A stretch of DNA of 18,175 bases, from the IMG/VR virus record IMGVR_UViG_2547132279_000005. The stretch is one strand, 5' to 3'. Both the position numbers and the translations under genes were made by a program. The DNA comes from a virus. Its lineage: Duplodnaviria; Heunggongvirae; Uroviricota; Caudoviricetes. The notes beneath the pieces were generated by a model. The model saw only the letters and a list, made by a program, of their open reading frames with translations. It was not told the origin of the DNA and ran no database searches. How positions within the stretch are numbered: position 1 is the first letter of the stretch; every line of letters starts with the position of its first letter. This document shows, piece by piece, positions 15,076 to 18,175 of the stretch.

Positions 15076-15232
15076 AGCTTCAGCCCCTTGTATCCGTTAA
15101 ATGATTCGGCAACAATCATCACCCACCACGCGCGTAATCTCACCCCTGCGCCGTTCTCCCGTCACGGCGACAACAAAAAGCAGTAACCCCCTCCGCACGC
15201 ACATGCGACCATGCCGCACAGGGAGGGAACAG

Positions 15233-16342
15233 ATGACCGATACCACCATGCAATTGCTCAGTCAGGGCACAGACCCCGTGAAAATGCCGGATTTTGATAT
15301 TCTCGCGGAGGGTAAAACGCTGTCAGGCGTGGCCGAGCGCCTGATGAGCCTGTCACTGACCGACAACCGGGGATTTGAGGCGGACCAGCTCACCATCACG
15401 CTGGATGATGCGGATGGTCAGTTGCAGCTACCGCCACGGGGCGCGCGCCTGACGGTTCTCATTGGCTGGAAAGGAGAACCGCTGACAGAAAAAGGCACTT
15501 ACATTGTTGATGAAATCGCTCACGAAGGACCGCCGGACAGGCTGACTGTTTCAGCCAGAAGCGCAGATTTTCGGGATGAATTTAACGTTAAACGTGAGGT
15601 GTCCTGGCATGATGTGACCATTGAGCGTGTGGTATCCGCCATCGCTCATCGGTATGGTCTGAAACCGCAAATCAGCGAAATGCTGATGGATATCGAAATC
15701 GACCACGCCGACCAGACTGAAGAAAGCGACATGTCCTTCCTTACGCGCATGGCGGAAATGCTGGGCGCAATCACCACGGTAAAAAGCGGTAATCTGTTAT
15801 TCATCATGCCCGGCGGTGGCGTGAACGCACAGGGCCAGCCGTTGCCATCGTTCGCCATCACACGCAGCAGCGGCGATCGCCATCAGTTCCGCATTGCTGA
15901 CCGCGAGGCGTATACGGGGGTACGCGCTTACTGGCTTGATCTTAATTACGGGAAAAAGAAAAAAGTCAGCGTGAAACGCCGCAAACCGCCAAAACCCAAA
16001 AAGGAGAAAAGCAGCAGCCGTGAAGGTGATTATATGGAAGGCGCGGAAGGCAATGTGTTTGTGTTACGCAAGACTTATCAGAACGAGCAGGCAGCAAGAC
16101 GCGCAGCGGCGGCAAAGTGGCAGCAGCTACAACGCGGAGCCGCATCATTCTCCATCACGCTGGCGCGTGGACGCGCAGAACTCTATCCCGAAATGCATGG
16201 CACGGTGAAAGGCTTCAAAAGTGACATCGACAATCAGGACTGGATTATTGCAAAAGCTGAGCACACCATTGATAACAGCGGCTTTACCACACAGCTTGAG
16301 CTTGAGGCAAAAATCCCGGAATGGATAGCGGAAACAGAGTGA
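15233..16342 (+). CDS. D: Tail protein gpD (late control gene D / baseplate hub)
   Basis: LMSLSLTDNRGFEADQLTITLDDADGQLQLPPRGARLTVLIGWKG, RSADFR, SDMSFLTRMAE and a lysine-rich linker followed by EGDYMEGAEGNVF are colinear with P2 gpD. Start chosen at ATG 15233, preceded by GGGAGGG; the ORF track extends upstream to 15101. Confidence 0.85.
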   Translation: MTDTTMQLLSQGTDPVKMPDFDILAEGKTLSGVAERLMSLSLTDNRGFEADQLTITLDDADGQLQLPPRGARLTVLIGWKGEPLTEKGTYIVDEIAHEGPPDRLTVSARSADFRDEFNVKREVSWHDVTIERVVSAIAHRYGLKPQISEMLMDIEIDHADQTEESDMSFLTRMAEMLGAITTVKSGNLLFIMPGGGVNAQGQPLPSFAITRSSGDRHQFRIADREAYTGVRAYWLDLNYGKKKKVSVKRRKPPKPKKEKSSSREGDYMEGAEGNVFVLRKTYQNEQAARRAAAAKWQQLQRGAASFSITLARGRAELYPEMHGTVKGFKSDIDNQDWIIAKAEHTIDNSGFTTQLELEAKIPEWIAETE

Positions 16343-16384: not shown

Positions 16385-16645
16385 ATGTTCCGTTGTCCGC
16401 TTTGTGGCGCATCTGCCCGTATCCGCACCAGTCGTCCGGAAAATGATTCAAACACCGTGCGGCAAAAGTATTACCAGTGTAACAACCTGGAATGCGGCGT
16501 ATGCTTCTCAACACTGGAAGCCTTCCATAAATTCACATCGAAACACGCCTCCGGCGTTCACTCATCAGAAGGTATTCCGTGGCATGAGCTGCCAGCTTCA
16601 CACAGGGGAAACAATCAGATGAGTTTGCCTTTACCTCAGAATTAA
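16385..16645 (+). CDS. ogr: Ogr/Delta-family zinc-finger late transcription activator
   Basis: MFRCPLCGASARIRTSRPENDSNTVRQKYYQCNNLEC has the same CxxC...CxxxxC layout and ARTSR motif as P2 Ogr (MFHCPLCQHAAHARTSR...YHQCQNVNC). Preceded by an AGGGAGG Shine-Dalgarno sequence. Confidence 0.85.
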   Translation: MFRCPLCGASARIRTSRPENDSNTVRQKYYQCNNLECGVCFSTLEAFHKFTSKHASGVHSSEGIPWHELPASHRGNNQMSLPLPQN

Positions 16646-16718
16646 CAGGCAGAATTGCCGGAGTAACAAAAAAGCGATAGATTACGCGCGGGTGCCTTTC
16701 GGCTGATGGTCGGAGGGA

Positions 16719-16916
16719 ATGCCCGAAGGCCAGATGTGGAAAGGCCCCGGAAAACATCTCTGTTTAACCGAGGCCCTAACCGTCTACCTAGCAAGTGATA
16801 GGTTAGCGCCTCCCCGAAAAAGGAGCAAGCGCTATGTCGCAAAAATCGCTTACAGCCATCACGTTCTGTGTGACGGCAATCCTCATCATCTGGATGCTGC
16901 ACGGCTCGCTGTGTGA
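16719..16916 (+). CDS. mok-like overlapping reading frame upstream of and overlapping the hok-like gene
   Basis: A 65-codon ORF begins 115 nt upstream of the hok-like start and overlaps it in another frame, as mok does in hok/sok loci. There is no independent sequence support. Confidence 0.35.
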   Translation: MPEGQMWKGPGKHLCLTEALTVYLASDRLAPPRKRSKRYVAKIAYSHHVLCDGNPHHLDAARLAV

Positions 16917-16974
16917 AATACGGATGAACTTCTGGGGAGCGGAGTTTGCGGCGTTCTTACAGTGTAAACAGTAA
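16834..16974 (+). CDS. Hok/Gef-family type I toxin (small membrane protein)
   Basis: The 46-aa product MSQKSLTAITFCVTAILIIWMLHGSLCEIRMNFWGAEFAAFLQCKQ has an N-terminal transmembrane segment and the family motifs SLCE(I/L)R and AAFL.CK (compare Hok RKSLCEIR; HokA ...WMIRDSLCEL...ELAAFLACK). SD is AAGGAG. A 9-bp-stem hairpin at 16984-17007 lies just downstream. Confidence 0.75.
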   Translation: MSQKSLTAITFCVTAILIIWMLHGSLCEIRMNFWGAEFAAFLQCKQ

Positions 16975-17064
16975 GGAAACCGCGACGGGGGAAGAGATTC
17001 CCCCGTCAATCGGTTGCCAGGGTAAGGTCGATAAGGCACCCTATCTCACAGACATGAACAACAA

Positions 17065-17098
17065 ACCCGCAGCGTAAAAACTGCGGGTTTTCTTTTTG
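17065..17098 (+). terminator. Rho-independent terminator downstream of the hok-like gene
   Basis: ACCCGCAG-CGTAAAAA-CTGCGGGT stem-loop followed by TTTCTTTTTG. Confidence 0.75.
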
Positions 17099-17144
17099 CT
17101 ACCCTCACAAATGAGGGCACCATACATAAGCAATAGGCATAACA

Positions 17145-17182
17145 GATCGATGCAATAAATCCGATCGATAAAAACGATCGAT
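17145..17182. promoter_or_regulatory. Cluster of three GATCGAT motifs (Dam GATC sites) in the com-like promoter region
   Basis: GATC at 17145-17148, 17163-17166 and 17176-17179, each within GATCGAT, spaced 18 and 13 bp apart, 45-80 bp upstream of the com-like start. Confidence 0.6.
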
Positions 17183-17226
17183 TTGTTATCATATCGGCAG
17201 CAGTAACCACACAAGAGGTGCCGCAA

Positions 17227-17424
17227 ATGACGCAAAATGTACGATGCAAAAATTGCAACAAACTACTTGCCCGCGCCTCATTTCACTACATTGAAATAAA
17301 ATGTCCGCGCTGCAAAACACTTAACCAGATAACGAGAGCCATCGAGCACCCCACACACATGAGGAGTTATGACCGTGGGGATCGCAATCCAGCACCAACC
17401 AGCACATACACCGGAACACACTAA
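17227..17424 (+). CDS. com: Com-like zinc-finger translational regulator (Mu Com homologue)
   Basis: MTQNVRCKNCNKLLARASFHYIEIKCPRCK matches Mu Com (MKSIRCKNCNKLLFKADSFDHIEIRCPRCK), with four Cys in a CxxC...CxxC layout. SD AAGAGG lies 9 nt upstream of ATG 17227. The 3' end overlaps the methyltransferase start. Confidence 0.85.
   Translation: MTQNVRCKNCNKLLARASFHYIEIKCPRCKTLNQITRAIEHPTHMRSYDRGDRNPAPTSTYTGTH
17349..17380 (+). promoter_or_regulatory. RNA hairpin enclosing the methyltransferase Shine-Dalgarno sequence and start codons (candidate Com target)
   Basis: CCCCAC (17349-17354) and GTGGGG (17375-17380) are exactly complementary. They flank GAGGAG (17361-17366) and ATG 17369, and the in-frame GTG 17375 is part of the 3' arm. 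Confidence 0.45.
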
Positions 17425-18175
17425 GGTTTATCAGACTGACAATGCCACGCTCTGTCGTGGGAATGCGCTGGAAATATTGCCGCTGATTGAGCCAGAAAGC
17501 ATTGATGCCTTAATCACTGACCCGCCTTACAGTTCGGGTGCGACACACAAGGCCGGACGCACCAACCAGGGCAGCCATGCAAAATATCTGAACGGCGAGA
17601 ACCTTCACCGCTTTGATGGGTTCGCGGGTGAAAACATGGACGCCCGTTCGTGGGCTTACTGGACACAATTATGGATGGCACAGGCACACCGCGCAGTCAG
17701 GCCGGGCGGTTATGCCCTGGTATTTACTGACTGGCGACAACTACCAGCTTTAACCGATGCGTTTCAGGCCAGTGGCTTTACATGGCGCGGCATCATTGCG
17801 TGGAACAAGGGGAGGGGGTCACGAACACCACATACCGGGTATTTCCGGCATCAGTGCGAATACATCGTCTGGGGCAGCAAAGGCCATTTAGATAAATCGC
17901 CTTCGGGACCGTTCGACGGCTGCATGACGTTCCCGGTTATCCCGTCAAAGAAAATGCACCCGACCGGAAAACCAGAAGAACTAATGGCGGAACTGGTCAG
18001 GACTGTGAATAGTGGCGGAACAGTCCTCGATCCTTTTATGGGGTCAGGGACAACGGGTGTGGCTGCACTGAAAGCAGGGCGAAAATTTATTGGTATAGAA
18101 ACCAGTGATCATTATTTTGAGGTAGCAGCGCAGAGGCTTCGGGGGACTATTACCACAACCATTTCGGCTACATAA
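17369..18175 (+). CDS. DNA methyltransferase, beta-class amino-methyltransferase (probable N6-adenine), com-linked
   Basis: Motif IV DPPY (ITDPPYSS) precedes motif I FxGxG (LDPFMGSGTTG), with HPTGKP between, the motif order of beta-class N6/N4 methyltransferases. The start overlaps the com 3' end; ATG 17369 or GTG 17375. The stop TAA is at 18173-18175. Confidence 0.85.
   Translation: MTVGIAIQHQPAHTPEHTKVYQTDNATLCRGNALEILPLIEPESIDALITDPPYSSGATHKAGRTNQGSHAKYLNGENLHRFDGFAGENMDARSWAYWTQLWMAQAHRAVRPGGYALVFTDWRQLPALTDAFQASGFTWRGIIAWNKGRGSRTPHTGYFRHQCEYIVWGSKGHLDKSPSGPFDGCMTFPVIPSKKMHPTGKPEELMAELVRTVNSGGTVLDPFMGSGTTGVAALKAGRKFIGIETSDHYFEVAAQRLRGTITTTISAT

Follow-up and report, generated by a model that had tools for sequence, protein, structure and literature searches.

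The elements of Hok/Sok-type toxin-antitoxin loci were defined on the R1 hok/mok/sok (parB) system. In R1 the 5' end of the hok mRNA folds back onto its 3' end, a tac/fbi pairing that defines hok mRNAs; the mok start, 58 nt ahead of that of hok, falls within the target of the antisense RNA Sok, and mok translation is required (PMC9841398). Escherichia coli K-12 hokC(gef)/mokC/sokC is a homologous module with the conserved mRNA 5' end GGGUGCU, and its annotated SokC is the reference by which Sok is located here. Among prophage hok loci we found one that had been studied by experiment, hokW-sokW of the Stx2 prophage Sp5 in E. coli O157:H7 Sakai. It is a working type I toxin-antitoxin system; its HokW toxin is produced once the prophage is induced and helps in the release of phage (PMC8621323). 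A survey published as a 2026 preprint has catalogued Hok in 3852 prophages and 2501 phages, with enrichment in prophages; it leaves Mok and Sok unannotated and says that the function in prophages awaits study (bioRxiv 10.1101/2025.08.07.668861). We have analysed a tailed-phage sequence of 18,175 nucleotides (IMG/VR record IMGVR_UViG_2547132279_000005; the window), for which a preliminary description had proposed an intact Hok-family type I toxin locus between the genes ogr and com. We find that positions 16655-17098 very probably hold all the parts of a Hok/Sok-type type I toxin-antitoxin module. This self-contained unit is cargo of a P88-like prophage, in which it lies between ogr and the com/methyltransferase genes, and the predicted folds of its mRNA suggest a switch that would operate without mok.

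Toxin, messenger RNA and predicted antisense RNA

The elements placed in the module (about 445 bp) are given below along the plus strand, where closed refers to the full-length mRNA and open to its 3'-truncated form.

16655-16683, plus strand: predicted hok promoter, with -35 box TTGCCG (16655-16660), a 17-nt spacer and -10 box TAGATT (16678-16683)
16690-17098, plus strand: predicted full-length hok mRNA, about 409 nt, from the conserved 5' end GGGUGCC to the intrinsic terminator
16690-16704, plus strand: tac, the mRNA 5' end, pairing with fbi (closed) or ucb (open)
about 16792-16734, minus strand: predicted Sok RNA, about 53-59 nt, located through homology with R1 Sok and the annotated SokC of K-12
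16736-16748, plus strand: ucb-like box GUGGAAAGGCCCC, pairing with the GAGG box (closed) or tac (open); entropy 0.01 bits
16770-16780, plus strand: GAGG box GAGGCCCUAAC, positional homologue of the mok Shine-Dalgarno (SD) sequence of R1 and hokC
16781-16799, plus strand: variable loop of the target hairpin, complementary to the Sok 5' end
16801-16813, plus strand: dcb-like box GGUUAGCGCCUCC, holding the anti-SD CUCC (16810-16813); its opposite strand is the sok -10 box
16828-16800, minus strand: predicted sok promoter, with -35 box TTGCTC (16828-16823), a 17-nt spacer and -10 box TAACCT (16805-16800)
16820-16825, plus strand: hok SD sequence AAGGAG, 8 nt upstream of the ATG
16834-16974, plus strand: hok coding sequence, 46 amino acids plus stop, MSQKSLTAITFCVTAILIIWMLHGSLCEIRMNFWGAEFAAFLQCKQ
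16984-17007, plus strand: 3' stem-loop, a 10-nt perfect inverted repeat (16984-16993/16998-17007)
17026-17041, plus strand: fbi, core AAGGCACCC at 17033-17041, pairing with the mRNA 5' end
17063-17098, plus strand: intrinsic terminator, stem 17063-17090 followed by a T/U-run to 17098

The toxin gene had been recognised by the preliminary description from a 46-codon open reading frame (ORF) with the motifs SLCEIR and AAFL.CK, a strong SD sequence, a hairpin just after the stop codon and a terminator, and every one of these was recovered. In the translated peptide SLCEIR occupies residues 25-30 and AAFLQCK residues 39-45. The peptide matched the Pfam family PF01848 (HOK_GEF) with 30.4 bits (E 3e-7; residues 7-44 on profile positions 5-42 of 42), above the curated gathering cut-off of 22 bits, and PHROG 251 ('MokW-like host killing') with 81.7 bits, so homology searches place it inside the Hok family, as had been expected. 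Among 1264 Hok peptides, seven positions are conserved in more than 80% (M1, C16, T18, L30, C31, E32 and E41; bioRxiv 10.1101/2025.08.07.668861). The window peptide has every one of them, with an offset of 4 (M1, C12, T14, L26, C27, E28 and E37), and its C44 corresponds to logo position C48. The N-terminal segment LTAITFCVTAILIIWML (residues 6-22) is a predicted transmembrane segment with a mean hydropathy of 2.44, compared with 2.66 in R1 Hok. At residue 32 the window peptide has N where most copies have S, and a search of the PDB by sequence returned no relative. On this homology the peptide is a member of the Hok/Gef family. The hok frame has the highest synonymous fraction of the three frames (0.42 versus 0.21 and 0.12), a codon pattern by which it is judged to be under purifying selection.

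The remainder of the module was mapped through the RNA. DNA alignment with an R1-type hok/sok locus and with K-12 hokC/sokC runs the entire length of the module, although the similarity to R1 is too low for blastn, and the mRNA 5' end at 16690 was placed by this alignment against GGCGCUU of the R1-type locus and GGGUGCU of hokC. The predicted hok promoter begins 10 nt past the ogr stop codon; its -10 box is aligned with the -10 region upstream of the R1-type and hokC mRNA starts, and both hexamers are kept where the flanks diverge among phage, plasmid and chromosomal contexts. The DNA homology of diverged copies covers 16681-17097. RNA 16690-17098 folds with a minimum free energy (MFE) of -170.1 kcal/mol compared with -130.8 +/- 5.8 for shuffled sequences (z -6.8), and 0 of 100 shuffles folded as well. 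The transcript ends and the 3' processing used below would follow the R1 pattern.

The full-length fold has the form expected of an untranslatable hok mRNA. Its 5' end GGGUGCCUU (16690-16698) is a 9-nt perfect complement of the fbi core, and in the MFE structure tac pairs with 17026-17041 in a helix of 15 pairs that closes the whole molecule. Inside it, GGCCCCGG is paired with CCGAGGCC, and the hok SD is held in a 10-bp hairpin of GCGCCUCC with GGAGCAAGCGC, in which the partner of the dcb-like box is the hok SD region (16822-16832). Across 34 distinct homologous loci the tac/fbi helix is paired in 97.8% of cells, most fbi-side substitutions keeping a standard pair, and the SD-hairpin helices are paired in 100% and 99.3%. 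On the 34-locus alignment the pairs of the closed fold are paired in 94.5% of cells, compared with 37-45% in slid controls. The regulatory boxes have entropies of 0.00-0.08 bits versus 0.21 for the coding sequence, tac being invariant (0.00) and the dcb-like box at 0.08.

To mimic the 3' processing known for R1, the truncated RNA 16690-17010 was folded. Here the 5' end pairs with ucb (16736-16748), the GAGG box pairs with GGUUAGCGCCUC (16801-16812, dcb) and the long SD hairpin is lost; RNAalifold on the 34 distinct full-length homologues gave the same open fold. The GAGG box, which is aligned with ACGAGGCA of R1 and CGAGGCC of hokC, forms the 5' arm of the Sok-target hairpin in both the truncated and the consensus folds, and 16781-16799 forms its loop. 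This loop is likely the Sok recognition and specificity region. It contains a YUNR-type CUAG that, by analogy with R1, may act as a U-turn. Downstream of hok, the stem-loop 16984-17007 shows compensatory changes at five pairs among the homologues, with 99.4% of cells paired, and on the R1 model (PMC9841398) it is likely the end-protecting hairpin of the processed mRNA. The terminator is conserved among the P2-like copies, and other terminators take its place in other contexts.

The preliminary description did not locate an antisense sok gene, and the alignment now predicts one on the minus strand. K-12 SokC (NC_000913.3 16952-17010) maps to positions 16786 to 16734 of the window, and the geometry of the sok promoter predicts a start near 16792. 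The predicted Sok is single-stranded at its 5' end, continues into a GC-rich hairpin (GGGCCUCGG...CCGGGGCC) and finishes with UUUCC; its fold has an energy of -24.6 kcal/mol (z -3.1). The sok -35 box overlaps the complement of the hok SD, so that promoter and SD stand back-to-back, an arrangement that is the same in R1 and hokC in the alignment. The sok -10 box is nearly invariant among the 34 loci; TAACCT is aligned with the R1 sok -10 box, which we take to be TATCCT.

The two Sok-facing loops, that of the target hairpin (16781-16799) and that of the Sok hairpin (16750-16767), vary more and hold more indels than any other part of the module (0.61 bits), and E. coli genomes carry up to four copies of the module each. 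This variability could reflect a diversification that prevents cross-talk between co-resident Sok RNAs.

Several results weigh against the identification of a complete Hok/Sok module. Both promoters were placed by homology only and are weak, with 8 of 12 (hok) and 6 of 12 (sok) sigma-70 consensus positions, and neither was listed by a generic promoter scan. The invariance of tac means that the tac/fbi helix shows no two-sided covariation, and the helix contains a U-U mismatch in 7 of the 34 loci. The NCBIfam Hok models scored below their cut-offs (NF007279, 22.2 versus 73 bits; NF007290 for HokA, 34.7 versus 89 bits), which accounts for the RefSeq name 'Hok/Gef family protein' rather than 'type I toxin-antitoxin system Hok family toxin'. 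Rfam gave zero matches in the whole window at gathering thresholds. A scan with a structure model of the hok mRNA family, which the preliminary description had suggested, gave a match below the gathering score: under E-value thresholds RF01794 (sok) matched 16690-16847 on the plus strand over the full model (1-157; E 1.4e-8), at 44.4 bits under a gathering score of 59. The RF01794 consensus reads as a sense-strand hok leader that begins at the hok mRNA 5' end and ends at the AUG. Finally, the closest characterised prophage system, hokW-sokW, encodes a different, Gef-like Hok of 51 amino acids.

Compared with R1, the window contains the same kinds of elements in the same order: a Hok/Gef membrane peptide, tac/fbi with the alternative tac/ucb pairing, the GAGG box with a dcb target hairpin, a predicted cis-antisense Sok whose promoter would stand back-to-back with the hok SD, and a stable 3' hairpin before fbi with a terminator after it (R1 definitions from PMC9841398; the window side is predicted from sequence). 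The hok/mok/sok architecture proposed in the preliminary description stands in its tac/fbi, tac/ucb and GAGG/dcb pairings, all predicted, with a putative Sok gene placed by homology, and does not stand in its mok component. The differences from R1 lie in the peptide, R1 Hok having 52 amino acids and 39% identity to the 46-residue window peptide over 31 residues (BLASTP), in a leader about 29 nt shorter (hok ATG at +145 versus +174), and in the mok region. Relative to K-12 hokC, which has IS186 directly downstream (3' flank), the window locus is uninterrupted, in agreement with the earlier statement that it is not disrupted by an insertion sequence.

Proposed working of the module and its possible roles

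From these folds we propose the following working. The weak promoter would yield the mRNA of about 409 nt, in which tac pairs with fbi and an upstream anti-SD locks the hok ribosome binding site (RBS) in the 10-bp hairpin, leaving the RNA stable and untranslatable. Slow 3' trimming to the hairpin 16984-17007, by analogy with R1, would remove fbi; the 5' end would then re-pair with ucb, and the freed GAGG box would capture the anti-SD (dcb) strand. The trimmed RNA would be both translatable and accessible to Sok. A short and unstable Sok would pair with the target hairpin, and the duplex would presumably be cut by RNase III. Once the supply of Sok stops, the 46-amino-acid Hok would be made and inserted into the inner membrane, and the cell killed or lysed. 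Sok action and Hok toxicity are taken here from the known systems. Three roles are candidates: the module may retain the prophage by killing cells that have lost it, it may exclude other phages, or it may assist lysis once the prophage is induced, as reported for hokW-sokW.

The last of these roles can be weighed further, since the module might be mainly a phage lysis or release accessory in which induction shuts off Sok and Hok helps to permeabilise the membrane. In Sp5, sokW vanishes after mitomycin C, HokW accumulates in a RecA-dependent manner and phage release is halved without the locus (PMC8621323). The window locus, moreover, closely follows the late-gene activator ogr on the same strand, and no terminator is predicted in between. 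Yet HokW belongs to a different Hok subfamily, no sequence feature ties the window module to lysis genes, and the 46-amino-acid module is found also on plasmids and at non-phage chromosomal sites, which argues for a context-independent selfish or stabilising role. We consider a primary function in lysis doubtful.

The hokW-sokW system resembles the window locus in being a prophage-borne Hok/Sok module. HokW, however, is Gef/HokC-like (a primer encodes MKQQKAM...) with 44% identity to R1 Hok, whereas the window peptide is of a 46-residue type beginning MSQKSL. Stx2 phages also carry the 46-residue hok type, at about 82% DNA identity and beside a membrane protein gene (L003, Lyz12581Vzw, 1670-1810). 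This copy was considered as the published hokW and rejected, HokW having 51 amino acids and being Gef-like. Most of the listed Stx-phage records leave the 46-residue copy unannotated ('none').

The mok-like frame and the predicted opening of the hok RBS

The preliminary description had included a mok-like upstream frame, and such a frame does exist in the window.

16719 (or 16734)-16916, plus strand: mok-like overlapping ORF, 65 amino acids

The canonical hok/mok/sok interpretation would make this ORF, from the ATG at 16734 (or 16719), a working mok that is needed for Hok synthesis and whose translation Sok blocks. The ORF has an ATG start with the SD-like GAAGG (16725-16729) upstream, overlaps hok as far as 16916, and has the precedent of R1, where mok translation up to the hok SD is mandatory (PMC9841398). 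The predicted 3' tail of Sok also extends to the ATG at 16734. The position of the start, however, does not agree with that of a mok gene. In hokC the annotated mokC start lies at the R1-equivalent place, inside the SokC-complementary region. The window has no start codon at this position after the GAGG box, and no conserved mok start (ATG, GTG or TTG; in the hok frame and both other frames) was found there. The start of the overlapping ORF lies about 45 nt farther upstream, outside the Sok 5' recognition region, and ATG 16734 is base-paired in the closed and open folds alike. Read upstream, the hok frame itself runs into a conserved TAG, which belongs to the predicted sok -10 box.

In order to follow the frame among relatives, 42 distinct leaders were gathered from phage, plasmid and genome collections, the query being an alignment of six homologous peptides. 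Only six of them read through into hok from the conserved ATG, and the frame is lost in the other 36, whose Hok peptides are up to 98% identical to that of the window. Where the frame does not read through, it ends short of the hok ATG by 28 to 98 nt: 17 leaders stop at -43, 8 at -28 and the others between -44 and -98. One plasmid leader reads ATG TAG. The loss is due to indels in segment 16781-16799, and the six read-through leaders arise from different indels. The synonymous fraction is lowest in the mok-like frame, at 0.12, although what counts in R1 is translation as such, and the putative Mok has no Pfam or PHROG match. The mok-like ORF of the window is most likely fortuitous rather than a conserved part of the module; the frame noted in the preliminary description is thus present and not conserved.

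Computed opening energies set this subfamily apart from the R1 type. For the window, opening the hok RBS costs 11.5 kcal/mol in the full-length RNA, 6.7 in the truncated RNA and 12.1 in the truncated RNA with the Sok target masked, and this pattern recurs in seven of eight representative loci. In the R1-type control the hok RBS stays closed (17.5, 17.4 and 18.2 kcal/mol, respectively) and it is the mok RBS that opens, from 12.4 kcal/mol (full length) to 7.1 (truncated), consistent with the known mok dependence; the masked value is meaningless for the mok RBS in this control, as the site falls inside the masked region. In the predicted folds the switch thus opens the hok RBS in the window and the mok RBS in the R1-type control. 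Taken together with the ORF start and the loss of the frame among relatives, this makes a working mok at 16734 or 16719 unlikely.

We tentatively suggest, at somewhat less than even confidence, that the 46-residue 'MSQKSL' Hok subfamily, which occurs in P2-like and Stx prophages and on some plasmids, is a mok-less variant of hok/sok. In such a direct switch the GAGG box would be a former mok SD kept as the strand that captures the hok anti-SD; 3' processing would open hok's own RBS, and pairing of Sok with the GAGG box would return the anti-SD to the hok SD, leader-peptide translation playing no part. Some results count against this suggestion. The independence from mok rests on thermodynamic predictions, the IncI1 copy is the one of the eight loci without opening, and the window itself belongs to the minority with an ATG-initiated frame reading into hok. 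In addition, the pair probabilities of the SD are high even in the truncated form (0.57-0.95), although they do not discriminate between the states and the opening energies with the R1-type control are more informative. Our literature searches found no paper stating that a hok subfamily lacks mok.

If the subfamily is mok-less, the textbook hok/mok/sok coupling would not be universal in the family, and the target loop, rich in indels, could diversify freely as a determinant of Sok specificity. Studies of how type I toxins are silenced would also gain a simpler natural switch, in which a single RNA takes three states.

An additional observation concerns R1-type loci. In one of them (L005; NZ_CP128973.1, IncFII plasmid, 300-760) the hok ATG comes 57 nt after that of mok and in frame with it, and the RefSeq coding sequence is a shortened hok. 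In R1 the spacing of 58 nt is out of frame (numbering in PMC9841398). On these sequences the frame relations of mok vary even inside the R1 group.

Distribution, genomic setting and additional observations

DNA matches to the locus were obtained in 1546 of 5426 complete E. coli genomes, with 990 of them nearly full length. An intact-looking but silent evolutionary relic, as argued for chromosomal E. coli hok loci without post-segregational killing, is very improbable for a module spread over so many genomes and mobile elements with an intact ORF under apparent purifying selection and regulatory boxes nearly invariant among phage, plasmid and chromosomal copies. Toxicity was also seen for 42 of 45 diverse Hok peptides assayed in a preprint (bioRxiv 10.1101/2025.08.07.668861), a set that may or may not include the 46-residue cluster. 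In favour of a relic, both promoters are weak consensus matches, and chromosomal hokA, hokB and hokC, as summarised in the same preprint, could not mediate killing and were proposed to be inactive.

The locus is already known as a Hok/Gef toxin gene. RefSeq E. coli genomes annotate a 'Hok/Gef family protein' in the same ogr-hok-com context, and phages P88, Chuche, 500465-2 and P884B11 annotate it as 'MokW-like host killing'. Neither sok nor RNA features are annotated in the two records of this locus that were inspected, and literature searches for hok in P2-like phages returned nothing specific. What is added here is only the module map and the probable absence of mok. Where public records annotate just the 46-residue coding sequence, the map adds both promoters, tac, ucb, dcb, fbi, the Sok gene and the processing hairpin. 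It thereby provides exact targets for engineering or deleting the module in P88-like phages, whose abundant P2-like copy is a tractable test case for what hok does in a prophage.

The prophage setting given in the preliminary description was borne out, and the hok/sok module is cargo of a P2-family prophage of the P88-like type. Over its whole length the window shares 95-97% identity with P88-like phages of that family and with E. coli prophages. In P88-like phages (Xuanwuvirus: P88, Chuche, 500465-2 and P884B11) and E. coli prophages the locus occupies the same position at 93-97% DNA identity, in the shared order gpD - ogr - hok - [com - methyltransferase] - att/int. These copies show allelic differences only from the window, notably indels in the Sok target loop that change the upstream frames. 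Diverged copies (74-86% identity) occur in Stx phages, on IncI1 and other plasmids and at chromosomal sites. Homology between contexts begins at the -35 box and stops just after fbi, and these sharp boundaries indicate that the module is mobile as a unit. The genes around it in the window are as follows.

15101-16342, plus strand: gpD-like tail gene
16385-16645, plus strand: ogr (PF04606)
17218-17424, plus strand: com (PF10122), overlapping the methyltransferase gene
17369 to the end of the window, plus strand: N6/N4 DNA methyltransferase (PF01555, 116 bits)

Two observations concern the database records. Contigs labelled Planococcaceae bacterium, Vagococcus sp. and Xanthomonas pisi (L011, L012 and L015) encode this Hok at 74-96% identity and are most likely contaminating or mislabelled enterobacterial sequence. 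Among the IMG/VR contigs (L017-L096), about half stop exactly 3 nt beyond the match to the hok coding sequence (locus length 2641). The boundaries predicted for these prophages therefore leave out the hok 3' untranslated region with fbi and the terminator, and the module is routinely truncated in IMG/VR.

In the region downstream of the module (17218-18175), the enzyme that follows com is an N6/N4-type methyltransferase (PF01555) rather than a Mom-type modification enzyme. The com-methyltransferase pair is annotated likewise in E. coli prophages and phage Chuche, whereas phage P88 matches the window only up to 17097 and seems to be without it. All three GATCGAT heptamers of the window fall within 38 bp (17145-17182) just upstream of com, and the cluster overlaps short inverted repeats and the only sigma-70-like promoter found in the region (17165-17192). 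The mom/com operon of phage Mu is reportedly controlled through a cluster of Dam (GATC) sites. By this analogy, the arrangement suggests that the com-methyltransferase pair may be under methylation-dependent control.

At the other end of the window, positions 1-1457 (ORFs 7-612 and 609-1391) are unmatched by P88, Shae_phiSM, PhiR44_2 and 500465-2 and by the best E. coli prophages. The matches of all these phages and prophages begin at 1458. Phage 503458, in contrast, matches the window from base 1, and the first 1.4 kb of the window looks like a mosaic junction in the prophage.

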